From IMG/VR virus record IMGVR_UViG_3300045988_087270, positions 1-64,000 of that record: 64,000 nucleotides of DNA; one strand, 5' to 3'. Below are positions 2,030 through 58,479 of the stretch, in pieces. Numbering within the stretch: the first letter of the stretch is position 1; the number at the start of each line of letters is the position of its first letter. The translations under genes were made by a program, and so were the position numbers. Below the pieces are notes generated by a model. The model ran no database searches, was not told where the DNA came from, and saw only the letters and a list, made by a program, of their open reading frames with translations. This stretch comes from a virus.

Positions 2030-2209
2030 ATGGCATGGGTAGTAGTTGATATGGATGGTACAGAGTATATTTATAATGCACAACCTTCTAGATAAGAAAC
2101 TCGTTTTATGTCGTGCTTTGATTGTATACATATTCCAAAAGGTAGCATCAAGAAGCTCATCGGAAAAGAGTTGTCTTGGAATGATGAGCCAGTAGAACTT
2201 AAAGAATAA
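2030..2209 (+). pseudogene. interrupted paralog of 464-685 (in-frame TAA at 2093-2095)
   Basis: Reads MAWVVVDMDGTEYIYNAQPSR*ETRFMSCFDCIHIPKGSIKKLIGKELSWNDEPVELKE, homologous to the 464-685 product on both sides of the stop. Confidence 0.4.
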
Positions 2210-2210
2210 T

Positions 2211-2510
2211 ATGATATTCTATAGATTTGGTGAAATTCCTGAAGATGAATACTCATCTATATGGAATAATAATGATGAAGTAATAGGTAAAGAAAGTGGT
2301 GTATCTGTTTATGAAGCCCATAAAAATATAAATGGAACATATTCTCCTATTCTTCCATTTCCAACAAATGAGATAGCATTTAATAGTTTTATATATTATA
2401 TAAAATACTTTACTGGCAATAAATATTTAGTAACAGGTGATTTGTTAGATGAAACTGGTACTGATGGTGAACCGTTAATTAAAAATGTAAAAATATTAAA
2501 GAAATTATAG
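2211..2510 (+). CDS. hypothetical protein
   Basis: 99 aa ORF. Confidence 0.45.
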   Translation: MIFYRFGEIPEDEYSSIWNNNDEVIGKESGVSVYEAHKNINGTYSPILPFPTNEIAFNSFIYYIKYFTGNKYLVTGDLLDETGTDGEPLIKNVKILKKL

Positions 2511-2512
2511 TT

Positions 2513-2917
2513 ATGGAAATAGAAAATATAAATAATTATTCAGAAATGTCTATTGAAGACTTAGAAAAGCTTAAAATAAAGCTTTTAAGTCAAAGAGATA
2601 ATTTAGAGAATACTATAGGAGAAATAATAAATAACATAAGAGCTAAAAAACTGCAAGTTAGTAATCACGCTCTTAGAGAACATCCTTACTATAAAAATAA
2701 CACATCTTATCTAAAAGTTGTTATCAATGATGGTACTGGATATACTATAACTAAAATTACTCCTAGTGGTAAATGTATGGGGGTATATCAGTTTAATGCA
2801 GACACTATCGACTTTTTAAAATATTATAAAATCTGCTCTCAGTCTGAGTGGGATAGTGCCATAGATAGACTTAATGTATGGTTTAAAGATACTAGTTTAA
2901 AAATTAAAAAGCTATGA
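2513..2917 (+). CDS. hypothetical protein
   Basis: 134 aa ORF; stop overlaps next start (ATGA). Confidence 0.5.
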   Translation: MEIENINNYSEMSIEDLEKLKIKLLSQRDNLENTIGEIINNIRAKKLQVSNHALREHPYYKNNTSYLKVVINDGTGYTITKITPSGKCMGVYQFNADTIDFLKYYKICSQSEWDSAIDRLNVWFKDTSLKIKKL

Positions 2918-3093
2918 CAGCAGAAGAATGTATGCAACTTATGGTACATGACTTAGTAAAAGGTCATTTATCTGTAGCTGAAATAGCTGATAAATATTGT
3001 GATTGTGCTTCTTCAGAGTTAAGAGATTCATTAATCTCTCAATTAGAAGAACTCAGACGTTTATATAACTATAAAAGAATACTAAGTAAATGA
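2914..3093 (+). CDS. small hypothetical protein (59 aa)
   Basis: ATG ORF below the track cutoff filling the gap; ATGA overlaps with both neighbours. Confidence 0.4.
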   Translation: MTAEECMQLMVHDLVKGHLSVAEIADKYCDCASSELRDSLISQLEELRRLYNYKRILSK

Positions 3094-3329
3094 TTAAAGC
3101 AAAAGACGCAAAAGCTATATCTAGGTCTGCCGTATTAGACCTACATATATTAGATCAAATAAACTTTGCTATAATTAAAGAAGCTAGTAAAGGTAATTAT
3201 GCAGCTTGGATTGGTTCCATACTTCCAACAACTAATGTTGACAAATATTATGATTACCTTAAAGAGTTAGGATTTGAGATTAGTCTTCTTTATAAAGGTG
3301 AACATGGAGTTTATGTAGTTTGGAAATAA
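3090..3329 (+). CDS. hypothetical protein
   Basis: 79 aa ORF. Confidence 0.45.
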   Translation: MIKAKDAKAISRSAVLDLHILDQINFAIIKEASKGNYAAWIGSILPTTNVDKYYDYLKELGFEISLLYKGEHGVYVVWK

Positions 3330-3550
3330 AAATAAAAGATATGGATAGATTTTGGAAATTAGCAACATTTGCATTACTAGTATTTAGTATTAGTATGGTT
3401 ATTGGCAGTAATAACCTTTCGAATCAAATTGAAGAGTTACAAACAACTGTAGATAGACAGGCAAACGCTATTCAGCAACTTGAAAGAGAAAAGAATAATA
3501 CTGAAGTAACTATTCCTCAGTATTTGGATAGTTTGCCTGGTGGTGATTAA
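3320..3550 (+). CDS. small membrane protein
   Basis: 76 aa; hydrophobic helix WKLATFALLVFSISMVIGS then a coiled-coil-like tail. Confidence 0.45.
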   Translation: MEIKIKDMDRFWKLATFALLVFSISMVIGSNNLSNQIEELQTTVDRQANAIQQLEREKNNTEVTIPQYLDSLPGGD

Positions 3551-3658
3551 ATACTATAATATGAATGCAGATATTCAATTTGTAATTCTATTTTTTATTA
3601 TAATAGGAATATTAATTGTTTCTATGACTTTTTTATTATATTATATAAGTTAATTATT

Positions 3659-4282
3659 ATGTATTTAGAAGATAATAGATGGAAAAATTGGCACACCAGA
3701 TGTTCTGATACAGCCATTAAAGAGAACAAAAAAGAAGATACTAAAATAAATACAATATCAGTATCTAAGTTACTTGATTATGCTCATACTGCATTACGTA
3801 ATTGTGAGAATAATAATCTAGATCCTGATAAAGTTCCAGTATTTCTTTCTTTAGGTCGTGATGAAAACTTATATTCTAATGTAAGTTTAGCTATATGTTG
3901 TAGTAGTCAATTAGGTACTTATGTAACTTTAGGCTCTTCAGACTATTATAGAATGTTCTATGTTGCTCCAGATTCTAAACCTGAAGTAGGTGAGTATTGG
4001 AGAAGTAGAGGCATAGGTTATGATTTATCTGGTTTTGTAGTATCTAAACTAGCAGGTGAACGATTAACTAGGTTAGTTAAATATGTACTTAACACAGATG
4101 AACCTCTGTCTCATCTAGATTACAGAGAATATGAACCTAATTGGATTCAATTTAAGTTTCAAAAAGAAGAATTTAATTTAGAGTTGTTGGATAAACTTGC
4201 AAGAGAAAATGAGAATATAGTTAATGAAGCTATATTAAGACAATGTATGATTAATGATTCCGAAAAAGAAACAGATTTATAA
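3659..4282 (+). CDS. hypothetical protein
   Basis: 207 aa ORF. Confidence 0.5.
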   Translation: MYLEDNRWKNWHTRCSDTAIKENKKEDTKINTISVSKLLDYAHTALRNCENNNLDPDKVPVFLSLGRDENLYSNVSLAICCSSQLGTYVTLGSSDYYRMFYVAPDSKPEVGEYWRSRGIGYDLSGFVVSKLAGERLTRLVKYVLNTDEPLSHLDYREYEPNWIQFKFQKEEFNLELLDKLARENENIVNEAILRQCMINDSEKETDL

Positions 4283-5184: not shown

Positions 5185-6237
5185 ATGAAATTTGTAATTA
5201 ATGAAGAATTAGGAGAAAAAATTAAGACTTTGTACTTAATAGATGGATTAAGCTGTACTAAGATTGGTAAAGAAGTAGGATTATCTACTTCTACTATAAG
5301 TTCATTTCTAAAAAGAAATGGGATTGAAGTAGTTAATAAACAAAACAAATTATTATTTGATCTAGATAAAGATATTATTCCTAAATATGAGCAAGGAATA
5401 AGTTTATCTAAATTAGCTAAAGAGTATCATACTTCTATCCAAACTTTGTCTAGAAAATTAAAAGCTAGAGGAATTGAAATAATTAATCATCAAAATGAAA
5501 CTAAGTTTAATGAACATATCTTCGATGTTATAGATACAGAGGAGAAGGCTTATTGGCTAGGATTTATATTTGCTGATGGTTATATTTCATCAAGAGATAA
5601 TGGTTTTGAACTATCTTTAAAAGGCTCTGATATTGAACACTTACATAAATTTAATAAGTTTATGGAGCATAATAAAGATAATGTCAAATTAGGGGAAGTT
5701 AAGTATAAAGATAAAACTTTTTTAAGGTGTCGCTGGGGAATAGTTAATAAGCACTTATGGAATACTCTAAATAATTTAGGATGTACTCCAAGAAAAAGTT
5801 TAACTCTTCAATTTCCTAATATTTCTGAAGAATTAGAAATTCCTTTTATTAGAGGGTACTTCGACGGAGATGGCTGTTTAAGTTACTATTAGAAGACAAA
5901 AATTATACCAAAAGCTTCATTTTTAGGAACTAGACAATTTTTAGTAAAGATACAAGCAATATTAAATAATTTTAATATAAAAAGTTCTTTAGTAAAAGAT
6001 CCCAGAATGGAAAGTACATTAATATTAAATATATCTTCAACAAATTCTTTAGATTTTTTAGACTTAGTATATAGTAATAGTTCCATTTATTTAGACAGAA
6101 AATATAAAAGATATAAAATTTTTAAAACTTGCCGTTCTAAACAGGAATGTTTAGAATTATTAGCGGGTGAAAACGGGGAAGGCTGTGATGCTAATCCCGT
6201 GGTAAATGAAGATAGTAACGAATCTTCATCACTGTAA
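5185..6237 (+). CDS. LAGLIDADG homing endonuclease (intron-encoded) with in-frame TAG at 5890-5892
   Basis: YWLGFIFADGYISS and RGYFDGDGCLSYY motifs. The product aligns full-length to the HE at 33854-34906 across the TAG; the track splits it into 5128-5892 and 6007-6237 in the same frame. Confidence 0.65.
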
Positions 6238-12213: not shown

Positions 12214-12294
12214 GTCTAGATAGCCAAGTGGTCAACGGCAGCAAGCTGTTAACTTGCCCCGAAAGGTTCCTAGGTTCGAATCCTAGTCTAGGCG
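12214..12294 (+). tRNA. type-II tRNA (Ser-like body, G73) with anticodon loop cuGUUaa
   Basis: Acceptor gtctaga/tctaggc, T-arm ctagg-ttcgaat-cctag, 3-bp D-stem with 11-nt D-loop, 12-nt variable arm, anticodon stem gcaag/cttgc; positions 34-36 read GUU. Confidence 0.55.
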
Positions 12295-12302
12295 CAATGA
12301 TA

Positions 12303-12365
12303 TATGCCTCTTATTTCTAAGGTTCATTACCTTCTCGAAAAGAAATGTGTACACAAGAGGCGCCT
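12303..12365 (+). other. structured RNA-like element (7-bp closing stem gcctctt/aagaggc, internal hairpins)
   Basis: Nested stems atttct/agaaat, aagg-ttcatta-cctt (T-arm-like) and palindrome gtgtacac, immediately 5' of the next tRNA. Confidence 0.3.
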
Positions 12366-12442
12366 GGAGTATTAAGCCCTGTTGGTAAGGGAACTAGACT
12401 GTCACTCTAGTAAAACTAAGGGTTCGAGTCCCTTATATTCCG
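12366..12442 (+). tRNA. tRNA-Asp(GUC), non-canonical D-arm
   Basis: Acceptor ggagtat/atattcc (one G-U), anticodon stem ctaga/tctag with loop cuGUCac, T-arm aaggg-ttcgagt-ccctt; the D-stem pairs only ccc/ggg. Confidence 0.5.
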
Positions 12443-12587
12443 CAAATAATGGAGAGCACCTAGCGTTTAACTGGGTAGTTGTTAGAGGTAGCGGTGGCAA
12501 TCCACGAGTATGCCTGATAGCTCAATATATTATTAGAATATGGTCACGATAGTTTGCCCGTCTAATGCCATATTTGCCTTTATTTAA

Positions 12588-12659
12588 GCTTCAATAGCAC
12601 AGTGGTAGTGCAGCATTCTTGTAAAATGCAGGTCGTAGGTTCAAATCCTACTTGAAGCT
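12588..12659 (+). tRNA. tRNA-Thr(UGU)
   Basis: Canonical cloverleaf: acceptor gcttcaa/ttgaagc, D-stem gcac/gtgc, anticodon stem gcatt/aatgc with loop cuUGUaa, T-arm gtagg-ttcaaat-cctac. Confidence 0.8.
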
Positions 12660-12668
12660 CTCTAATAT

Positions 12669-12740
12669 CGTGGGTTGTAGCAGTGGTAGCTTGTTTGTCT
12701 CATAAGCAAACGGTCATCGGTTCGAGTCCGATACCCACAA
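12669..12740 (+). tRNA. tRNA-Met or Ile2 (CAU)
   Basis: Acceptor cgtgggt/acccaca (1:72 C-A mismatch), anticodon loop cuCAUaa, T-arm atcgg-ttcgagt-ccgat. Confidence 0.65.
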
Positions 12741-12746
12741 CAAAAT

Positions 12747-12830
12747 TGTCTAGTATGTGAAGTGGTCAAACATGACTGACTGTAAATCAGCTGCTATTTA
12801 GCTTCGGGAGTTCGAATCTCTCCTAGACAA
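12747..12830 (+). tRNA. tRNA-Tyr(GUA), type II
   Basis: Acceptor tgtctag/ctagaca, anticodon loop cuGUAaa, long variable arm gctatttagc, T-arm gggag-ttcgaat-ctctc. Confidence 0.7.
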
Positions 12831-12850
12831 CTAATTAAAAAATAAATAAT

Positions 12851-13327
12851 ATGGAAAAAACTTTTAATTATCAATCTGATGCAAATTTCTATGATAAAAA
12901 GGATTTTATTATAGCTGTTTTAAAAAGAAAAATAAATAGTTTTAAAGAGTATGATGCTAAAAGAAAAAAGCATTATGCTGGACTAGAACAAAAAATTGGA
13001 GAATTAGAATCCTATATAGATGAATTAGAGAACGGACTTAGTATAGAATCTTTAAGTAATAAAATTCAATCTTTAGAAAATGAGATTGAGAAACAGAATC
13101 TTAAAATTAGAGAGTTAAGAGCTAAAGTTAATATATCTTTATTTGATGATACTAAGTCTTTTAGAGAATTAGAATCTATGGCAAATAATTTAAAAGACTT
13201 TAATAGCATGAAATTAGCTATTAAAGATCTTAGAAAACGGCTTAAAGATAACAAAAAAACTATATCTGATTTAATATATGAATTAACACAAGCTAAACTT
13301 AAAATAAAACAATTAACTGGAGAGTAA
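12851..13327 (+). CDS. coiled-coil hypothetical protein
   Basis: 158 aa; heptad-rich LENE/IEKQNLKIRELRAK. Confidence 0.5.
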   Translation: MEKTFNYQSDANFYDKKDFIIAVLKRKINSFKEYDAKRKKHYAGLEQKIGELESYIDELENGLSIESLSNKIQSLENEIEKQNLKIRELRAKVNISLFDDTKSFRELESMANNLKDFNSMKLAIKDLRKRLKDNKKTISDLIYELTQAKLKIKQLTGE

Positions 13328-13337
13328 TCTCCAATTT

Positions 13338-13411
13338 GGGGCGTCGGCTCAAGTGGTCAGCACCTGCTTTGCACGCAGGCATTCTTAGGAGTTCGAATCT
13401 CCTACGCTCCA
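13338..13411 (+). tRNA. tRNA-Ala(UGC)
   Basis: Acceptor ggggcgt/acgctcc with the G3:U70 identity pair, anticodon stem cctgc/gcagg with loop uuUGCac, T-arm aggag-ttcgaat-ctcct. Confidence 0.8.
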
Positions 13412-13431
13412 CTATTAAATTAAATATTTTT

Positions 13432-13888: not shown

Positions 13889-14605
13889 ATGAAGAAATTT
13901 AAAGAATGCACCAATGAAGAAATTAAATTAGCTATATCAAATAGCGAAAATTTAAATTAGGTTTGTAAGTAGTTATTATGTACCGATAATACTTACAATA
14001 GAAATAAAATAAGAGATTTTATTAAATCAAATAATTTAAGTATAGCACATTTTAAAACTAGATATTCTAAGGAATCTTACGATAAAAATCCTAAAGTATG
14101 TAAATACTGTGGAAAAATTATTCCTTATGAAAAGCGAGTTAATGATTTTTGCAATCATTCTTGTGCAACTAGTTATAATAATATTGGAGTAGTACGCAAT
14201 AAACCATCTTTACCTACTTATTCACTCTGTTTGAACTGTGGAAAAGAAATTACTAAAGGAAATAAATATTGTAATAATACGTGTAAAGCAGAATATGAAA
14301 GAAAGGAATATATTAAAAGATGGAAAGCAGGGGAAGAATCAGGTATTATTGGAAAAGATAAAATAGCTACAGCAGTAAAAATATATTTGAGAGAAAAATT
14401 TAATAATTCTTGCCAAAAATGTGGGTGGAATTAGGTAAATTATTTCACAGGTTTAGTACCACTGCAAATTCATCATATTGATGGTAACTGTTTAAATAAT
14501 CAAGAATTCAATCTTTAGCTGCTATGTCCTAATTGTCATGCCTTAACGGAAAATTTTGGCTCTAGAAATAAAAATTGTACTAGAATTGATAAAAGAAAAC
14601 GATAA
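13889..14605 (+). CDS. HNH homing endonuclease with four in-frame TAG codons (13958, 13970, 14432, 14516)
   Basis: Single frame from ATG 13889 to TAA 14603-14605. Zn-ribbon pairs (CKYCG, CLNCG, CQKCG) and an intact HNH motif (HHIDGN...NLxLLCPNCHA) lie downstream of the third TAG. The only internal stops are TAG. Confidence 0.55.
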
Positions 14606-37623: not shown

Positions 37624-39363
37624 ATGTTATTTATGGTAATAAAGAGAGACGGAAGTAAAGAAGAGTTTAACAGAAACAAAATTAGAGATGCTGTATTAAA
37701 AGCTTTTGGAGTTACCCAAAATTCTAATAAGACAATGGACGAAGATATTTACAGAGCAGTTACTGAAATAACTAATTCTGTAGTAGAGACTGAAGATCAA
37801 TCTATTGAAGATATTCAAGACCAAATTGAAGAACTTTTAATGGATTTAGGATATCACGACGTAGCTAAAAAATATATTCTATATCGTAAAGAACGTGAAG
37901 ATATTAGGAATCATGCTACTAGAGATATTGAATTTATTCATAATTTTGTAAAATCTGATAATACTGCTAATGCTACTATTGACGACAATAGTAATGTAGG
38001 AACTAAAGGTATTGGAGTATTAAACGCTGAAATACATAAAGTCGATAATAAACTTACTAATACAGAATGGTGGGAAAGTTTTGTAAAGAAGAGAGACCCT
38101 AACTTTAATATAAAAGTTATGAGGAATGATTTTAAAACTATTTTATATCCTCATGATTCATCTTCTCAAGTAGGAGAACCATATTGTATGGCAGCTTCTA
38201 TGTATCCTTTCTTGTTGTCTGGATTAGAGAAATTAGGAGGTAAATCAGCAGTTCCAAAGAACCTTGATTCACTCTGTGGTATTTATGTAAATCTAAACTT
38301 TGCATTAGCTTCTGAAATTAAAGGAGCAGTAGCTACTCCTGAGTTTCTGATGTATATGGATTATTTCTGTAGAAAAGAATGGGGAAATAATTATTATCTT
38401 AAACCAAGTGTAAGAATAACTACAGATTACTGTATAAAACAGAAAACTATTGGTAGTCAAATTGATCAATATTTCCAACAAGTAACTTATTCTATTAATC
38501 AAATAGCTGGAGCTAGAGGAATGCAGTCTCCATTTACAAATTTTTCATTCTTCGATAAATATTTCTTTGAAGGTATGTTTGGAGAATTTGTATTTCCAGA
38601 TGGAACAAAGCCAGAATGGAATTCTACTAATTGGTTACAAAGACGTTATTTACATTGGTTAAACCAAGAAAGATTAAAATGTATTTTAACATACCCTGTA
38701 TGTAGCTATGCTTGCTTAACAGATAAGGAAGGTAATTTTAAAGATTTAGATACTTTCCATTTTATATGCAATGAATATGCTCAAGGAAATTCTTTCTTTA
38801 CTTATTTATCTCGTAGCGTAGATAGTTTAAGTTCATGTTGTCGTTTACAGAATGCAGTACAGGAAAATACATTTAATACTACTAATGGTCAAATAGGTGT
38901 AATGACTGGTAGTAAGAATGTCATCACTCTTAATTTAAATAGAATTATTCAGGATTGGCAGCATACTTGGTCTGATTATAAAGACCATATTGATGTTAAT
39001 ACCAATAGATGCTGTTTCCCAGTAGATTGGATTACACATAAAGATTTCCAAGAAGGAATTAAGAAATATATAGAAAATATTCTTGAAAGAGTTTATTTGT
39101 ATCAATATGCTTATAACGACTTAATGCATTGGTGCAAAGACCATCATTTATATGCTGCTTATGATGCTGGTTTTATTAATCTTGATAAGCAGTATTTAAC
39201 TATTGGAATTAATGGCTTAAATCAGGCTGCTGAATACTTAGGAATGGAATGTAATAATAATATTTATTATAAGACATTCTGTAGATTAATATTCAGTACC
39301 ATAAAAGAGCAGAATAAGAAACATAAAACTAAAACAGCTCAATTTAATACTGAACAAGTGCCT
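37624..39363 (+). CDS. nrdD: anaerobic ribonucleoside-triphosphate reductase NrdD, exon 1
   Basis: N-terminal ATP-cone (VIKRDGSKEEFNRNKIRDAVLKAF); large class III RNR body; ends ...FNTEQVP. The ORF continues only 10 codons into the intron before a stop. Confidence 0.7.
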
Positions 39364-40625
39364 AGACGTGTGGGCACTATAAATCTCTTTTAATTGACTC
39401 GAAACTCCTTAAATTAAGGACAACGAGGGGCAAGCAATAATTATTATAATTATGGGCAGCCTGAGAGACTAAATAAAGAGAATTTTAAATAAATTTATTT
39501 AAAGTATATAATAGTCCGAACTCTATGGTAACATAGAGAGAGAAAATCGAAGAATTTTCTCCGTTAATAATATAATATACAAAATAATTTTGATTCCCGA
39601 GGATGAGGGTCTATAATTGTTCTATAACAGTAAATATAAAAATTATAGTTTATGGAACAAAAATTAGACATTTTAAAAGTAAGAAATTTAGTAAAAGAAA
39701 AAAGAGTAAGAAAAAGAATACCAGATGAATGTACCTGTGAAGTATGCGGAAGTACTAAAGGAGAAGGGAAACTTAGAAGATTCAATGATTATATAGTTTG
39801 TGAAAAACACTATGACCAATTAAATAAATATGGTAAAATCACCGATACTTCTAAAAGAAAACACAAAAAGCCTTTAGAAAAATGTAGTATTTGTGGAGGT
39901 TTAAAAATGGCTTCTTTTGAAGGAACCCCATATTGTCGTAAACATTATATCCAAATAACTAGGCATGGGGTTATTAGAGATAGAACTATCTATGATGCTA
40001 ACGAATATGTTATTCATGAAGATTATGTAGAAGTAAAATGTTTTGATAAAAATGGTAATTATAAAGCTAGCACCAAAGTTGACTTAGAATTTTTACCTGA
40101 TATTAAAAAACATAAAATCTATATAAGAAAAAGTGGTATTAAAGAATATGCAGCATTTTCAGGAATAGAAAATGAAGAAGGTTCTGGTAAAAAATACTTT
40201 GTACATAGATATATAATGCATCTTCACGATAAAAAATATAATATTGATGAAGTAGTAGACCATATCAATGGGGATTCTTTAGATAATAGGATTTCAAATC
40301 TTAGAGTTTGTACTCAAAAAGAAAATTCTTATAATAACAGAGGAACAAAATTAAATCAAAAAATTAAAGGAGTAAACTGGCTTAAAGTAAATAAAAAATG
40401 GACGGCTAGAATAATGTACAATTATAAAAGTATACATCTTGGAAATTATTTTACTTATGCTGAAGCTGTATTAGCTAGAATAAAAAAAGAACAAGAATTA
40501 TTTGGTGAATATGGTCCTAACAAAGATTTATATTATATTATTAATCATCCTTCGCCAATAGAGGAATTAAATAAAATATTAGAAATTCCTTCTATAGAAG
40601 GAGCGTAACAGAATGGCAGAAAGCG
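39364..40625 (+). mobile_element. group I intron 1 of nrdD with HNH-AP2 endonuclease ORF
   Basis: P1: exon gtgcct pairs with IGS gggcac at 39373-39378. R-like gagagacta, S-like aagtatataatagtccgaac, P9 hairpin ctatggtaacatagag. Ends ...gtaacagaatG. Splicing gives FNTEQVP|AESASVKLY. Confidence 0.7.
39652..40608 (+). CDS. HNH-AP2 homing endonuclease (intron-encoded)
   Basis: HNH_3 motif VDHINGDSLDNRISNLRVCTQKEN, AP2-like KGVNWLKVNKKWTARI...; paralog of 42035-42805. Confidence 0.65.
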   Translation: MEQKLDILKVRNLVKEKRVRKRIPDECTCEVCGSTKGEGKLRRFNDYIVCEKHYDQLNKYGKITDTSKRKHKKPLEKCSICGGLKMASFEGTPYCRKHYIQITRHGVIRDRTIYDANEYVIHEDYVEVKCFDKNGNYKASTKVDLEFLPDIKKHKIYIRKSGIKEYAAFSGIENEEGSGKKYFVHRYIMHLHDKKYNIDEVVDHINGDSLDNRISNLRVCTQKENSYNNRGTKLNQKIKGVNWLKVNKKWTARIMYNYKSIHLGNYFTYAEAVLARIKKEQELFGEYGPNKDLYYIINHPSPIEELNKILEIPSIEGA

Positions 40626-40674
40626 CTTCAGTAAAACTTTATAATAGAGATAAGAAGGATGGGTAGACTCAATG
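40626..40674 (+). CDS. nrdD: NrdD exon 2 (49-nt mini-exon, AESASVKLYNRDKKDG)
   Basis: Matches the conserved class III RNR segment AES.S..(F/L)...DK; flanked by intron ends ...cagaatG and 5' exon-end U with IGS gcccat at 40684-40689. Confidence 0.6.
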
Positions 40675-41406
40675 CCCATGTAAAACTCTTACTGATTGAC
40701 TTGGAAGTCCGGTGTGGCGACAGGGCGCAAGCTGTAGCATTTTATATGTTACTTGCAGCGTGAACGACTGAGTGTAAGAGACTTATAAGGATAATATGTG
40801 AATATTGCTACTTATAGGTATGCGACAGTCTGAACTATACAAAGTATAGAGAGAATTCGAAGAAATTCTCCATTTATTTAGTGGGACAATTTTTTATTTT
40901 GACCCAGGGATAAAAATGGTTATATTAGTACCAGATAATAAAATATTAATTTAAACTAATTTTAATTGTATGGATACTAAAATTTGTAGCAAATGTGGAA
41001 GAGAACTTCCACTAGACCGTTTTGAATCTGGAAGAAATCAATGTAGAGATTGTCGTAATGCTAGACGCAGAAAATTAAGACAGGAGCATCCTGAAAAACA
41101 TAGATAGGAAGCTTCTAAAAGGCAAGAAGAGCAAACTAAATGGTTATATTCTCTAAAAAAGAAATGTTTAATATGTGGTGAAACTGAACCAGTATGTTTG
41201 GATTTTCATCATAAAGATCCTAATGAAAAAGATTTTACTATAGGTAAACATAGAAATAAAAGTAAAGAGAATTTAATGAAAGAGATAGAAAAATGTGTTT
41301 GTGTTTGCGCTAATTGTCATAGAAAAATTCATGCTGGTATTATTAATCTAGAAGATTACCTGAATAAATCATTTCCTCAAAGCCCAGAGGAAAGCGTAAC
41401 AGAATG
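40675..41406 (+). mobile_element. group I intron 2 of nrdD with HNH endonuclease ORF
   Basis: P1: exon atgggt pairs with gcccat. R-like gtgaacgactgag, S-like gcgacagtctgaac, P9-like hairpin ctatacaaagtatag. The 3' end gcgtaacagaatG is identical to intron 1. Confidence 0.65.
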
Positions 41407-41407
41407 A
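40970..41407 (+). CDS. HNH endonuclease with in-frame TAG at 41105-41107
   Basis: CSKCGRELPLDRF...CRDC zinc ribbon, then TAG, then CLICGE...CANCHRKIH HNH motif in the same frame. The terminal TGA uses the first nucleotide of exon 3. Confidence 0.55.
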
Positions 41408-41745
41408 CTGGGTTCCTACAGACACTAATCTGTATGCTAGTTATATATTTAAACCTAATGATACACATATAAGTATACTTGATAAAATTATACTTCATAG
41501 TTCTGAGTTCGCTGCTGATGAATTAGATGGAGGTTCTGCTTGTCATCTTAATTTATCTGAACATTTGAGTCAGAAACAATATGAGTATTTACTTAAATTT
41601 ATGGCTAAAGTAGGTTGTAAATATGCTACTTTTAATATTCCTAATTGTGAATGTGAAGAGTGCCATTTTATAGCAAAACAGCCGTTTAGTAAATGTCCTA
41701 AATGTGGCAGTACTCATGTAAGTCTATGGGATAGAATTATTGGGT
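41407..41745 (+). CDS. nrdD: NrdD exon 3 (Zn ribbon plus start of glycyl-radical motif, ends ...WDRIIG)
   Basis: YWVPTDTNLYASYIFKPND...CECEECHF...CPKCGSTHV..RIIG matches the NrdD C-terminus (T4-like CPKCGST...RITGY). Confidence 0.65.
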
Positions 41746-42809
41746 GAACGTAAACGCCCCACATAATAGTAATATTATGTAGTAAACGCAGAATATGCTG
41801 GAAACCCCTTAGAGCCTAAGTATACTTGAAATATTTTCAAGGATGAACAAGTCTTAGGATTGGGCAATCAGCAGACATATAAATTGTTAATTTATGTTAA
41901 AGTGTTAAGATTTATACAAGTCTTGTATATACTTAACATATATAAAATTTATGGGTCTCAGAGACTACCAATGCGCAACCTATGGGTTGATAGTATAGTC
42001 CACTCCCTTATTATTAACATAATTATTTAACAATATGAGAAAAATAACAGAAGAACGCTTTTGTGAAGTATGTGGAGTATCATCAAAATTTAAAAAAGTT
42101 AGTTTTAATAAACTTTCTGGAAAAATACTATGTGAAAAACATATGGGACAATTTAGAAGATTTGGGGAATTTAAAGATACTAATTCAAGAGGAGTATTTG
42201 ATGATAATGAAATTAGATTAAAAGATAATTTTGCGGAAATAGATACTTATGATTCTCATGGAAATATTATGGAGACATTTATTCTAGATATAGATGATGT
42301 TCCAAAATTAAAGGGTCATAAATGGAGAACTGTTTATAAAAATAATAAACCTTATTTATTTACAGGAAACCAGAAAAAAGAACGTATCTATTTTCATAGA
42401 TTGGTACTTCCTACTGATAAACAAGTTGACCATATTAGTGGAGATACTCATGATAATAGAAAATGTAATCTTAGAGAAGTAACTATCCAAGAAAATATGT
42501 TAAACCTACAAAAGAAATCTAATAATACTTCGGGTATTCGGGGGGTATCTTTTGATAAAAAACGAAATAGATGGAAAACTGATTTTACTTTTCAAAAACA
42601 ACGTTATTATTTAATGGATAGGAACCTAAAAGAAGAAGCCGTTTATCAAAGGTATCTTTGTGAGAAATTAGTATTAAAAAATTTTCGGAATGAAGCTAAT
42701 GATGCTCTGTATAATTCTTATATTGATAAAATTTCAGAGGAACGTAAAGCTGAAATAAAAAAGTATGTTATTAATAAATTAAATATCTCGAAAGAGAGGG
42801 TATAAAAGG
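41746..42809 (+). mobile_element. group I intron 3 of nrdD with HNH-AP2 endonuclease ORF
   Basis: R ctcagagactacc and S gatagtatagtcc boxes at ~41960-42000; intron ends in G. Splicing restores RIIG|YLTKISNWSAARQLE, the glycyl-radical consensus. Confidence 0.65.
42035..42805 (+). CDS. HNH-AP2 homing endonuclease (intron-encoded)
   Basis: VDHISGDTHDNRKCNLREVTIQENM HNH motif, GIRGVSFDKKRNRWKT AP2-like; paralog of 39652-40608. Confidence 0.65.
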   Translation: MRKITEERFCEVCGVSSKFKKVSFNKLSGKILCEKHMGQFRRFGEFKDTNSRGVFDDNEIRLKDNFAEIDTYDSHGNIMETFILDIDDVPKLKGHKWRTVYKNNKPYLFTGNQKKERIYFHRLVLPTDKQVDHISGDTHDNRKCNLREVTIQENMLNLQKKSNNTSGIRGVSFDKKRNRWKTDFTFQKQRYYLMDRNLKEEAVYQRYLCEKLVLKNFRNEANDALYNSYIDKISEERKAEIKKYVINKLNISKERV

Positions 42810-42910
42810 ATTTAACAAAGATTTCTAATTGGAGTGCTGCTAGACAACTAGAAGGTAGTACTAGAAGTAGAAAGAATAAATTAGAAATTAATATAGAATT
42901 AGCACAATGA
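42810..42910 (+). CDS. nrdD: NrdD exon 4 (C-terminal glycyl-radical tail)
   Basis: (G)YLTKISNWSAARQLEGSTRSRKNK...; the stop overlaps the thioredoxin start. Confidence 0.6.
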
Positions 42911-43170
42911 AAAAAATATTAAAATTTGAAGCAGAATGGTGTGGACAATGTAAAGCTTTAGCACCTATTTTAAAAAGAGTATTAGAAAATCATACTGATA
43001 TTACTTTAACTACAGTAGACATAGAAATTGAAGAGGAAACTACTCTTAGATATAATATTAGAAATCTTCCAACTCTTGTGTTTATAAAAGATGATATAGA
43101 AGTAGGAAGAACTTCTGGAGTTTTAACTACTGATATGCTTGAGAACAAAATTAAAGAGTTCTATGCTTAA
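42907..43170 (+). CDS. thioredoxin/glutaredoxin-like redoxin
   Basis: WCGQC active site; sits between nrdD and nrdG. Confidence 0.65.
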   Translation: MKKILKFEAEWCGQCKALAPILKRVLENHTDITLTTVDIEIEEETTLRYNIRNLPTLVFIKDDIEVGRTSGVLTTDMLENKIKEFYA

Positions 43171-43639
43171 ATATGTTGATACAGCTGTTACTTTTGCAGA
43201 ATTTCCTAATGAAGTTTCTCTGTGTATTAACATCAGTGGTTGCCCTTGTTGCTGCGATGGCTGCCACTCACCTTATTTGTCAAAAGATATTGGAGAAGTA
43301 CTATCATTGGAACGACTTCAAGAATTAATTGAATCTAATAAAGGAATTACATTAGTAGGATTTATGGGAGGGGATTCTGACCCAAAAGAAATAAATAAAT
43401 TAGCTAAATGGGTTAGAGAAAATTACCCTGAATTACATATCGGATGGTATAGTGGTAAACAATTACTAGCTGATAATGATATAGATATTGATAATTTTGA
43501 TTATATTAAACTTGGTCCTTATATGAAACAATTTGGACCATTAAATAATCCAAATACTAATCAAAAATTTTATAAGATAGATAGAAATGCCCATATAATG
43601 ATATGGTGTACTGATATATTTTGGAAGGAGGCTGAATAA
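43139..43639 (+). CDS. nrdG: anaerobic RNR activating protein NrdG (radical SAM)
   Basis: NISGCPCCCDGCHSP cysteine cluster; adjacent to nrdD. The real start may be the ATG at 43163. Confidence 0.6.
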   Translation: MRTKLKSSMLKYVDTAVTFAEFPNEVSLCINISGCPCCCDGCHSPYLSKDIGEVLSLERLQELIESNKGITLVGFMGGDSDPKEINKLAKWVRENYPELHIGWYSGKQLLADNDIDIDNFDYIKLGPYMKQFGPLNNPNTNQKFYKIDRNAHIMIWCTDIFWKEAE

Positions 43640-55293: not shown

Positions 55294-56711
55294 ATGATTT
55301 ATTTAGTTACCAAAGCTAAAACTTTATTTAAATCTTCTAAATATGAATGTATTTCCATAGAGAAAAGTAAAGAAATTATTAATTCTATGGGAAAAATTAG
55401 AGGGTTAGATACTGAAACTAGGGGATTAAATCCTCATACTAAAGCATTATTAACTGTTCAGATAGGTACTAAAGAAAATCAAGTAGTAATTGATTGTACT
55501 ACTATAAATATTTTGGAATATAAAAATATATTAGAAGATTCCGATATTTTATACATCTTAGCTAATGCTAAATTTGATACCCAATTCTTCTTTAAACATA
55601 ATATTATATTATCTAAAGTATGGGATGTAATGTTAGCTGAAAAAGTTAGATATTTGGGATATCCTAAAGGTAGTTTTCATGCTGACTTACAGACCCTTGA
55701 ATATAAGTATCTTAATAAACATATGGATAAAACTGTTAGGGGTAAAATTACTAAAGTTGGTCTAATTGAAGAAGTAATAGTTTATGCAGCTAATGATGTA
55801 GTAGATTTGGAAGATTTAATGAATGCTCAAATAAAAGCTTTAGAAAAAGAAGATTTGGTAAAGGCAGTACAATTAGAGAATAGATTTGTTATTCCATTGG
55901 CTTATATGGAATGGTGCGGAGTAAAATTAAACGTAGAAAAATGGAAAGCTAAAATGGTAAAAGATGCTAAACGTTTAAAAATTGCTCTAAATAAATTAAA
56001 TGATTGGGTAATAGAACATTATGGAAATGACTCTAGATTTACTAAGGTAGATTTACAAGGAGATTTATTTTCAGGATTTAATACTGACCCACAGTGTACT
56101 ATAAATTGGAATAGTGGAACTCAAGTAATTCCATTATTTAAAGCTATTGGAATAAATACTTCTACTATAGATAGTAAAACAAAGAAATTAAAAGATTCTG
56201 TAGATGCTAAATTATTAAAGCCTCAAGCTAAGGATTTTGAAATTCTTCCTATTTATCTAGATTATAAGGAAGCTCAAAAAGTATGTTCTACTTATGGACA
56301 AAACTGGTTAGACCAAATAAATCCAGAAACTGGTAGAGTATATACTAAGTTTAATCAGTTAGGTACTAATACTGCTAGAATATCTAGTGGCGGAAAAGAT
56401 AAAAATGCTAAAATAGAATATGTAAATTTTCTCAATCTTCCAGCAGACCCAGAAACTAGAAGTTGTTTTATTGCAGAGAAAGGTAATTCTTGGATTTCAA
56501 TAGACTACTCAGGGCAAGAAAGTTTCATTATGGCTTCTATTTCTAATGATAAAGCTTTAATACATGAATTAATGGAGGGAAGTGGGGATTTACACTCTCT
56601 AACTGCTTATATGAGTTATCCTGATCAAATACCAAGAGATACAAAAATAACAGAAATTAAAGAAAAATATCACCATCTTAGACAAGAAGCTAAAGGCATA
56701 GAATTTGCCAT
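55294..56711 (+). CDS. family A DNA polymerase, exon 1
   Basis: 3'-5' exo motifs (LDTETRGL, YAANDV), pol motif A IDYSGQESF, DLHSLTA, motif B start RQEAKGIEFAI; the ORF stops 2 codons into the intron. Confidence 0.7.
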
Positions 56712-56983
56712 TAATCCTTAAATTATTACAATTTTGTGGCACTCTATGGAAACATAGAGAATAAAAAATTGGGTGAATTGCAGGAACTTAAGGAAAATCT
56801 GCAGCCAAGCCAACCTTTAACAAAGTTGGAAGGTTCAACGACTAACTCTTGAAACTTCGTAAGAAGAATATAATAGAGACACGAGCGCCCAACACCTAAA
56901 CTATAAAGTAAGGTGATGAAATAGTCTAGCCTATATGGTAACATATAGAGCCTTGGATAAAGAGCCAAGGGTTAATACACGCG
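56712..56983 (+). mobile_element. ORF-less group I intron (td/IA2-like) in polA
   Basis: P1: exon gccat pairs with IGS gtggc at 56736-56740. P gaattgcagg, Q aatctgcagccaag, R gttcaacgactaac, S aaatagtctagcc, P9 hairpin ctatatggtaacatatag. Ends in G. Splicing gives AKGIEFAI|NYGGDF. Confidence 0.75.
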
Positions 56984-57452
56984 AAATTATGGTGGTGATT
57001 TTAATACTATTCACCGAAACAAAGGCATCTCTATAGAGGAAGCTAAAAAGATATATGAAAATTATATGTCAGGTTTCTCAGGATTAGCTAAATATCAAGA
57101 ATATTGTAGGAAAATAGTCATGGAAAAAGGCTATATACTTCTAAATCCTATAAGCAAATATAGAGCACATATATATGATTTTGAGTCTCTACGTTCAATG
57201 CAAGAAAAAATGCAAGATAGAGAATTTTGGAAGTATTATAGAGAAATGAAACGAGAATCTCCTAATTGTGATACAGTACAAGAAGTACGAGATTTCTTTA
57301 AGAAAAAAGGTGAGTGTGAAAGGAATAGTATAAATTATAGAATACAGCATACTGGAGCTTTATGTTATAAAGTAAGTATGATTTATTTCTTTAGATGGAT
57401 AGTAGAAAATAATCTTTTTAATAAGGTTTTAATTACTATTACCCCCTACGAT
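56984..57452 (+). CDS. family A DNA polymerase, exon 2
   Basis: Completes motif B (NYGG...EEAKKIYENYMSGFSGLAKY) and continues to ...KVLITITPYD. Confidence 0.65.
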
Positions 57453-58317
57453 AAATAATCTTGTCGTAGTAAAACGATGTTAATTGCTTGGAACTCCTAA
57501 AGATTTAATTACTAAATTATTGAAATAATAAACCAGTAAAAATATTAAATATGATTTTACCTCAGTTAAAAGAAATGGACAATAAGCAGCTTTATAATTT
57601 TACAAGAGAACAAACTCAAGTATTTCTAACAGGACTGCTAGGTGATGGATGTATATCTACTACAAATAGTGGTAGTTATATTTATACTACAAATTGTAAG
57701 CATCTTGAATATTTAGAATTTAAAAAGAAATTATTAGGTAAAGGAAATATTAGACTCCAAGAAAGAAATGGCTATAGTCAAACTCCTATATATACTATGT
57801 ATGGGGGAGCTTACCCAGAATTATTTGAGTTTAAAGAATTTACTGTTCAAGATGTTATTGAAAACTTAGATTTACTTGGGTTAGCATTATGGTTTTACGA
57901 TGATGGTAGCCTTCATAAAAGAGATTTACATTATAATTTAAATACTCAAAAGTTCCCAAAGTATATACAAGAAGGAATTTTTATTCCATGGTTTGATTCC
58001 TTAGGCATTAAAGCTAATTTAAGACATGATACAAAAAGAGGAAAAGAATTGTATTATTTAGGAATTAATAAATATGAAGGAGCTAATATTATTAGTGAAA
58101 TACTATCACGTTATCCATTAGATTGTTACTCTTATAAATTATGGAGTTCAGAGACTATCCTGAAATGGAGTAAGCTGCAAGAGCAGGTGAAAAGCATCGA
58201 TGAAAATCTTACTAATAGGCAATTAGCTTATAAGTGGAGGTTTTTATAAGATATAGTCCGAACCTATATGAAAGTATAGGAGAATATATGGAATCGATAT
58301 ATTCGTAACAATATATG
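57453..58317 (+). mobile_element. group I intron in polA with LAGLIDADG ORF
   Basis: P1: exon acgat pairs with IGS gtcgt at 57464-57468. 3' S box aagatatagtccgaacc and P9 hairpin cctatatgaaagtatagg (GAAA loop). Ends ...tatatG. Splicing gives ...TPYD|EINCEAP.... Confidence 0.65.
57551..58249 (+). CDS. LAGLIDADG homing endonuclease (intron-encoded)
   Basis: LTGLLGDGCIS and LALWFYDDGSL dodecapeptide motifs. Confidence 0.7.
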   Translation: MILPQLKEMDNKQLYNFTREQTQVFLTGLLGDGCISTTNSGSYIYTTNCKHLEYLEFKKKLLGKGNIRLQERNGYSQTPIYTMYGGAYPELFEFKEFTVQDVIENLDLLGLALWFYDDGSLHKRDLHYNLNTQKFPKYIQEGIFIPWFDSLGIKANLRHDTKRGKELYYLGINKYEGANIISEILSRYPLDCYSYKLWSSETILKWSKLQEQVKSIDENLTNRQLAYKWRFL

Positions 58318-58479
58318 GAGATTAATTGCGAAGCACCTATAGAAATAGCTGAAAAAGTAGCTACTAGACTTCACGCTATCATGGTTAGAGCTGGAGAGAT
58401 ATTCTGTACTAGATGTAAGTTAGATGCAGATATTTCTAGATGTAAAGATGGAACACTACCTAATTACTGGATTCATTAA
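58318..58479 (+). CDS. family A DNA polymerase, exon 3 (C-terminus)
   Basis: EINCEAPIEIAEKVATRLHAIMVRAGE...GTLPNYWIH* aligns to the PolI/T7 C-terminal region ending in the conserved His. Confidence 0.6.
   Translation, partial: EINCEAPIEIAEKVATRLHAIMVRAGEIFCTRCKLDADISRCKDGTLPNYWIH

Follow-up and report, generated by a model that had tools for sequence, protein, structure and literature searches.

The nrdD gene of phage T4, which encodes the large subunit of a class III ribonucleotide reductase (RNR), contains one group I intron (sunY). The 3' part of this intron holds an endonuclease open reading frame (ORF), its 5' splice site follows a U that is paired with the internal guide, and its last nucleotide is G. 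In the jumbo gut (Jug) phages, nrdD was found to be fragmented in 95 of 104 genomes, with the DNA polymerase gene and terL also split, and it can occur in four pieces through group I introns and endonuclease insertions; for the four-fragment gene, metatranscriptome reads confirmed splicing at some junctions (PMC12880540, 2026; preprint 2025). In SPO1-like phages, a single RNR gene can hold several group I introns, which interrupt it at functionally conserved residues and some of which encode HNH endonucleases (PMC3653736), the nrdE genes of Brochothrix phage A9 and of Twort having three introns plus an intein and two introns, respectively. Group I introns of this kind recur in the nrdD gene of a 64,000-nt stretch of viral DNA (positions 1 to 64,000 of IMG/VR record IMGVR_UViG_3300045988_087270; 'the window' below), as set out here. 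Sequence comparisons supported a structure in which this gene consists of four exons (E1 to E4) split by three group I introns (I1 to I3), each with a homing endonuclease ORF (HEG1 to HEG3; Table 1).

An earlier reading of the same DNA (the original prediction) had noted that the nrdD reading frame is interrupted behind ...FNTEQVP (39363) and is taken up again downstream in pieces of 49, 339 and 101 nt. This was confirmed, with the peptides exact: the ORF that begins at 37624 meets stop codons soon after this motif, and the lengths of the pieces were right, although two of the junction coordinates (40626 and 40674) were 10 nt too high, the correct junctions being 39363/40616, 40664/41407 and 41745/42810. 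Joining E1, E2, E3 and E4 gave a 2229-nt coding sequence (CDS) for 742 aa in which the sole stop codon is terminal. I1 is inserted behind the codon for Pro-580 in the conserved EQVP/AES motif (the slash marks the insertion point, here and below), I2 behind the first base of the Tyr-597 codon, 49 nt past the I1 site, and I3 behind the first base of the Tyr-710 codon, directly after the glycyl-radical residue Gly-709, which is the last G of the WDRIIG encoded by E3. All three introns cluster in the 3' quarter of the gene. As predicted, every exon preceding an intron ends in U (GCCT, GGGT and GGGT in the DNA) and every intron in G (AATG, AATG and AAGG for I1, I2 and I3), the position of the omega G.

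The spliced NrdD produced a single unbroken Pfam NRDD match (residues 162-729, 255.7 bits) in addition to the ATP-cone, and its alignment with NrdD of T. maritima (PDB 4COI; E=2.7e-52) crossed every junction, FNTEQVP/AESASV being aligned with FNIEQVPAEKAAV and DRIIG/YLTKIS with MRIVGYLVPVS. A class III RNR large subunit is recognised by a C-terminal RxxGY glycyl-radical motif, a Zn ribbon and an active-site Cys in addition to the NRDD domain, and the alignment of the spliced product to 4COI covered CCRL, EQVPAE, the four-Cys ribbon and RIIGY. The proposal that the downstream pieces rebuild the NrdD C-terminus, with its glycyl-radical motif split by I3, thus passed the test that had been suggested for it, namely whether contiguous NrdD motifs are restored in the spliced protein. 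Gene callers would report a truncated NrdD of 589 aa together with fragments, the true product being 742 aa long and including the glycyl-radical site.

The intron boundaries were fixed independently by intron-less alleles. IMG/VR was scanned with the C-terminal 234 aa of NrdD, giving 79 loci onto which the window was mapped by BLAST; the relatives from which allele states were read share 95-99% exon identity, except L011 (~88%). Introns were lacking in L002-L004, L006-L009 and L011, and only an intein was present in L005 and L010. I1 with its ORF was found together with an ORF-less I3 in L022, and an ORF-less I1 (39582-40527 deleted) in L018, L023 and L025, L024 having a slightly different deletion. 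I3 with its ORF was present in L012, L013 and L024, and an ORF-less I3 (42025-42722 deleted) in L001, L022, L023, L025 and L027. None of the sampled relatives had all three introns together. The intron-less alleles matched the predicted junctions base for base, and E2 was contiguous with E1 and E3 in L001-L010, which include MT835492 (L001; from human faeces, 96% identical), where E1-E2 and E2-E3 are read through to give the protein ...FNTEQVPAESASVKLYNRDKADGYWIPTD.... Judged against these alleles, the exon/intron pattern is not a product of chance. The spliced CDS aligned without gaps to the intron-less L002, L003, L004 and L007, with a ratio of nonsynonymous to synonymous differences per site (pN/pS) of 0.05-0.08 overall and ~0.1 for E2 to E4, which shows the downstream exons to be constrained at the protein level like those of uninterrupted genes.

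Table 1. Positions of the nrdD exons, introns and endonuclease ORFs and of other features of the window
Feature	Position	Strand	Remarks
nrdD exon 1 (E1)	37624-39363	+	1740 nt; ATP-cone and most of the NrdD barrel; ends ...FNTEQVP; from ORF, exon map and Pfam
Intron 1 (I1)	39364-40615	+	1252 nt; group I
HEG1	39652-40608	+	318-aa HNH_3 homing endonuclease ORF in 3' part of I1; Pfam HNH_3 40.2 bits
nrdD exon 2 (E2)	40616-40664	+	49 nt; encodes AESASVKLYNRDKKDG and first base of Tyr codon
Intron 2 (I2)	40665-41406	+	742 nt; group I
HEG2	40970-41407	+	145-codon small HNH-type ORF in I2; TGA stop straddles 3' splice site
nrdD exon 3 (E3)	41407-41745	+	339 nt; DGGSACHLNL, Zn ribbon (CxxC...CxxC), ...WDRIIG
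Intron 3 (I3)	41746-42809	+	1064 nt; group I
HEG3	42035-42805	+	256-aa HNH_3 ORF in I3; Pfam HNH_3 31.2 bits; weak AP2-like match
nrdD exon 4 (E4)	42810-42910	+	101 nt; encodes (Y)LTKISNWSAARQLE... then stop
Thioredoxin gene	42907-43170	+	Downstream of nrdD; Pfam Thioredoxin 67.9 bits
NrdG-type radical-SAM activase gene	43139-43639	+	Pfam Fer4_12 29 bits; CxxxCxxC motif in translation
LAGLIDADG_3 ORF with HTH domains	5185-6237	+	TAG at 5890, inside Pfam domain match
HNH ORF	13973-14605	+	TAGs at 14432 and 14516, inside Pfam domain match
polA intron A	56712-56983	+	272 nt, no ORF; RF00028 91.9 bits; P1 UGCCAU/GUGGCA; splice restores FAI/NYGG
polA intron B	~57453-58317	+	P1 CUACGAU/GUCGUAG; 3' end GUAACAAUAUAUG; splice restores ...TPYD/EINC
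LAGLIDADG_2 ORF in polA intron B	57551-58249	+	

The core of I1 (~39364-39570) was matched by the full Rfam model RF00028 at 51.9 bits (E=1.4e-12; 39354-39538), with P1 formed with the 5' exon end, and that of I2 spans 40665-40883. Guides had been proposed a few nucleotides inside these two introns, and both were verified: GGGCAC (39372-39377) pairs with GUGCCU and GCCCAU (40674-40679) with AUGGGU, in each case forming a P1 of 6 bp. I1 and I2 also share an identical 13-nt tail, GCGUAACAGAAUG, that runs up to the 3' splice site. A near copy of I2 was present in L081 only, at the same site, the intron being ~88-93% identical and the exons away from the insertion ~70%; between the two copies, three P3 pairs have changed in a compensatory manner (CUCUUAC/GUAAGAG in the window, CCUCUAC/GUAGAGG in L081).

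Further members were sought by scanning viral contigs with the 14-mer GCGACAGTCTGAAC, which spans J8/7 and P7; the many matches were reduced by BLAST and motif filtering to ~15-20 family members with a core of the form ...CUGAUUGACUUGGAA...GACAGGGCGCAAGC...GCAGCGUGAACGACUGAGUG-P3'-P8-AUGCGACAGUCUGAAC-P9...GUAACAGAAUG, the last element ending at the splice site. As this conserved 3' end coincides with the last bases of I1 and I2, it provides independent support for their 3' splice sites. Rfam recognised only one intron among nine family loci (L144, 35.3 bits), and a family model was therefore built. In the underlying alignment of 19 sequences (A3), the positions of P3, P4, P5, P6, the P7 pseudoknot and P8 were 96.6% paired, relative to ~41% (40-48%) in slid controls, with compensatory changes on both sides in 21 of 28 pairs and with 0 of 500 shuffles reaching the observed values; the structure tested had been drawn from I2 itself, and its P5 was poorly supported. 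The resulting covariance model (R1) gave 131 bits to I2 and 115 bits to I1, both of which are in its training set, and also found members outside that set, at site 1 of L043 (122 bits) and at site 2 of the Prevotella phage Lak-B1 (99.5 bits). On these pairing data, I1 and I2 are members of one widespread intron family.

I3 (core 41746-42024) is of a different family. Its ORF-less ortholog in MT835492 was matched by the full RF00028 model at 40.6 bits (E=6.6e-9), still under the gathering score. The drop from ~40 to 19 bits in the window copy probably reflects a 58-nt AT-rich hairpin insert in P6 (41896-41953), which L001 and L027 lack and of which L013 has a shorter version. A related intron with an endonuclease gene occupies the same site in L028, the nrdD of which is 75% identical. 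When hand-drawn helices P1-P8 were compared with this homolog, 98.4% of the positions were paired relative to 30-43% in slid controls, all variation coming from L028 alone; five pairs, three of them in P3 (CGCA/UGCG to CCUC/GAGG), were compensatory with respect to this single divergent homolog. In I1, I2 and I3 alike, P3' is followed directly by P8, and no obvious P7.1 or P7.2 was seen. The predicted group I identity of all three introns was supported, by the Rfam score for I1, by covariation in the family for I2 and by the score of the ORF-less ortholog and the compensatory changes for I3. GNRA-capped P9 hairpins, which had been claimed for all three, applied strictly to I1 only (GUAA) and not to I2 and I3: the P9 loop of I2 is AAA or CAAAG, its GNRA loop (GUGA) being part of P8, and the GUAA loop of I3 is located in P2.

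Detection by Rfam depended strongly on the range that was scanned. A scan of the whole window with the gathering score as cut-off (50 bits for RF00028, Intron_gpI) yielded tRNAs only and no introns, and no intron was matched in 39300-42950 even at E<=10. Short ORF-free 5' sub-ranges recovered I1, I3 and intron A of the DNA polymerase gene (polA; 51.9, 19 and 91.9 bits, respectively), the two longer scans being false negatives as a result of the long ORF inserts and of the speed filters. A negative whole-window Rfam scan should not be read as evidence for the absence of group I introns.

The claim that each intron carries an HNH endonuclease held on Pfam evidence for HEG1 and HEG3 (PF13392, HNH_3, cut-off 24.8 bits), whereas HEG2, with no Pfam HNH match even at E<=1, is a probable HNH enzyme by homology. 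HEG1 matched I-HmuI (PDB 1U3E) over residues 134-239 (E=3.5e-4), and HEG3 was 29% identical to HEG1 (E=6e-22). HEG2 was ~42% identical to FelixO1-type ORFs, several of which are annotated as HNH endonucleases (NC_005282, MK524176), and 59% identical to an ORF within the Lak-B nrdD intron; it also matched the HNH enzyme PacI weakly (E=0.014), and the motifs DFHH...N...CANCH are visible by eye. All three ORFs are located 3' of the catalytic core. HEG1 stops 7 nt short of the 3' splice site, HEG2 on it and HEG3 4 nt short of it, so that the last codons of HEG1 and HEG2 double as the terminal ribozyme hairpin and tail. Where relatives have an intron without its ORF, the final 87-88 nt of the intron have been kept, which fits a need for this segment in splicing.

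Several lineages of gut phages have insertions at the same nrdD sites: at site 1 in close relatives of the window and in the more divergent L043, at site 2 in L081 and Lak-B1, and at site 3 in close relatives, L028 and, apparently, Lak-B1. In Lak-B1 (L231, MK250020.1 158588-162951), nrdD is broken at site 2 (...EDG/.../WVPTD) by an intron of the I1/I2 family with a HEG2-like ORF and a core that is 81% identical to part of the window's I1; its similarity to the window runs on past ...DRIIG into I3. The nrdD genes of Lak-A and Lak-C are uninterrupted. A fourth site is used in L081, where an insertion of ~1.1 kb (~2192-3309) with a GIY-YIG ORF (2431-3213) lies within the equivalent of E3, at a point between 41501 and 41537 of the window. 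Finally, the close relatives L001, L005, L010 and L018 have a 352-aa LAGLIDADG intein at the catalytic SSCC/CRLQ of NrdD, which is absent from the window's NrdD. In L001 it covers 2718-3773 (equivalent to window position 38840), starts with Cys and ends with His-Asn followed by Cys, and it matches Pfam Intein_splicing at 33.8 bits (cut-off 35.8) as well as LAGLIDADG_3. With sites that are empty, ORF-less or full among relatives, and with an I2 that is more conserved than the exons relative to L081, the introns have the distribution of mobile elements. The locus and its ~20 near-identical relatives may thus serve as a natural series for intron gain, ORF loss and intron loss, as it includes sites without an intron, introns with and without an ORF, and the intein at the catalytic Cys.

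From these comparisons we infer the splicing chemistry, the homing and the timing of endonuclease expression as follows. The nrdD gene would be transcribed as one pre-mRNA, in which the internal guide of each ribozyme would pair with the end of the preceding exon, the U.G wobble that ends P1 marking the 5' splice site. Two transesterifications, started by guanosine and finishing at the terminal G, would then leave a 2229-nt mRNA for the 742-aa NrdD. The endonucleases presumably cut intron-less nrdD alleles during co-infection, upon which repair would copy the intron in; such homing would explain both why sites are variously empty, ORF-less or full among near-identical phages and why divergent nrdD genes have the same intron at the same site. 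Translation of HEG2 would be delayed until late infection by an in-frame TAG codon. Self-splicing combined with endonuclease-driven homing of three independent mobile introns is very likely the mechanism at work.

Several observations nevertheless count against this reading of the window copy. Of the RF00028 matches that had been suggested as a check, only that of I1 exceeded the gathering score; I2 had no Rfam match and has a very short P5, and the window's I3, which scored 19 bits (E=0.0096), remained below the gathering score of 50, with a P1 of only 4 bp between GGGU and the short guide GCCC (41756-41759). E2, only 49 nt long, lies between introns with identical 3' ends, and a frame-shifting skip of this exon could lower the yield. 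One gap of the four-fragment Jug nrdD, moreover, was without RNA evidence for splicing (PMC12880540).

The position of E2 bears on a variant in which the introns do splice, with frequent skipping of this exon, so that the intron load throttles NrdD output and is not neutral. In favour of it, I1 and I2 are of one family and share the ending GCGUAACAGAAUG, and loss of 49 nt would shift the frame; each guide (GGGCAC and GCCCAU), however, differs from the other and fits its own upstream exon, and frequent skipping is regarded as unlikely. Landthaler and Shub are said to have described, in 1999, exon skipping by group I ribozymes in orf142 of phage Twort.

A second alternative is that the insertions are mobile and at least one of them no longer splices, the ribozymes being degenerate, the allele a pseudogene and the reductase of the host used instead. 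The low Rfam scores of I2 and I3 and the Jug gap without splicing reads would be expected in such a case, and the window allele is the most heavily loaded among ~20 close relatives. Yet the four exons are intact, in frame and under strong purifying selection that extends to the downstream exons (pN/pS ~0.1), every core helix of each intron is intact in the window copy, copies of the I1 and I3 cores in other contigs match them at 93-100% identity, and the partner genes for thioredoxin and NrdG are intact as well, all of which makes the loss of splicing improbable. That the fragments are separate polypeptides assembling without RNA splicing, as for nrdA of Aeromonas phage Aeh1, which is split by mobE and still functional (PMC3653736), or that the insertions are excised from the protein as inteins, like the true intein elsewhere in NrdD of close relatives, has next to no probability: at each 5' splice site the NrdD frame runs on for only a few codons to a stop, two junctions fall inside codons, E2 offers no start codon in this frame, and the insertions have ribozyme cores and lack intein motifs.

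In the preferred reading of self-splicing and homing, the expression of HEG2 calls for separate consideration, as it contains an in-frame TAG (41105-41107). The L081 copy has GAG at this codon and a TAG of its own where the window has CAG (Gln), and the two copies differ with a pS of 0.31 and a pN of 0.032 (pN/pS 0.10). By this measure purifying selection acts on HEG2 over its full extent. A pseudogene, suggested by the TAG, was rejected on account of this ratio and of TAG recoding in the lineage. In the 60-120 kb region of MT835492, coverage by ORFs 100 or more codons long is 11-33% with the standard code and 90-100% with TAG as sense, whereas ORF coverage of the first 60 kb is insensitive to how TAG is read; the lineage very probably reassigns TAG as sense in its late genes. 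The window is the counterpart of the early half of MT835492 and derives from the half of a gut phage genome that holds the early genes. TAG recoding is unneeded for the ordinary genes of the window: under the standard code, 89% of it is covered by + strand ORFs 70 or more codons long, the TAG stop of several genes has another stop close behind it, and no internal TAGs of the HEG2 kind were found in these genes. It speaks against recoding that ARAGORN detected no suppressor tRNA in either the window or MT835492; such tRNAs often go undetected in crAss-like phages (PMC7886860).

These data raise the possibility that endonuclease ORFs with TAG codons in the early half are fully translated only after the late switch of TAG to sense, the change of code acting as a timer. 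Three ORFs fit this picture, namely HEG2 and, elsewhere in the window, the LAGLIDADG_3 ORF at 5185-6237 and the HNH ORF at 13973-14605. We regard the chances of such a timer as evenly balanced; if it operates, the selfish nucleases would be silent while the genes that harbour them, including nrdD, are expressed and spliced. An ORF at 1048-1803 with a TAG at 1381 and without a Pfam match may be a fourth TAG case.

Group I introns were also observed outside nrdD. The family A DNA polymerase gene (55294-58479, + strand) is likewise split by two of them, giving a total of at least five in the window. Six tRNA genes (Asn, Asp, Thr, Met, Tyr and Ala) lie on the + strand at 12214-13412; MT835492 is without the Thr gene.

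The T4 nrdD intron, although in the same gene family, occupies another site, after nt 538 (~codon 179 of 605), relative to codons 580, 596 and 709 of 742 in the window. The two proteins were too divergent for the T4 splice site to be located by tblastn with the window's NrdD, and it was found by listing the reading frames and inspecting P1. The T4 gene has a single intron and that of the window three, the T4 endonuclease I-TevII is of the GIY-YIG type and those of the window are of the HNH type, and the R1 model gave no match to the T4 nrdD locus at E<=0.001. Low similarity was found between HEG1 and I-HmuI, from the DNA polymerase intron of Bacillus phage SPO1; the HNH_3 core is common to HEG1 and HEG3, both of which have additional N-terminal Cys-rich repeats relative to I-HmuI. 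The nrdE genes of SPO1-like phages encode class Ib enzymes of Firmicutes phages, and their insertion sites and intron sequences differ from those described here. Among annotated phages, the NrdD proteins nearest to that of the window, below the near-identical MT835492, are those of crAss-like (cr116_1, 66%) and Lak phages, a likeness that refers to NrdD alone. In crAss-like phages (Zeta and Delta groups; Yutin et al. 2021, PMC7886860; PMC12386605), the published multi-intron gene is that of the major capsid protein, whereas here it is nrdD.

For the timing of endonuclease expression, the nearest precedent is that of the Agate phages, in which a group I intron endonuclease in an early gene likewise has in-frame recoded stop codons, and for which the authors proposed that recoding blocks its translation until late infection (Borges et al., bioRxiv 10.1101/2021.08.26.457843). 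In Agate phages it is TGA that is read, as Trp, and in HEG2 TAG; unlike the Agate case, that of HEG2 is based on a pN/pS of 0.10 between copies with TAG at different codons and on two more endonuclease ORFs with TAG. A TAG-containing HEG2 under selection would provide a concrete, testable case for the published idea of delay by recoding.

The closest match in architecture is the four-piece nrdD of the Jug phages, the genomes of which are 360-402 kb, relative to contigs of ~94-181 kb in the lineage of the window. The number of introns and endonuclease ORFs in the window's nrdD had been described as an unusually high load, which was an overstatement, as comparable loads have been published (PMC12880540, PMC7886860, PMC3653736), and the current understanding of group I introns is unchanged by this gene. 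Multi-intron nrd genes of phages are already on record, including a four-fragment nrdD from the gut; unlike the Jug example, all three gaps of the window's nrdD have ribozyme cores and junctions defined exactly by intron-less alleles, and judged by these natural alleles the present case is an unusually well documented one.

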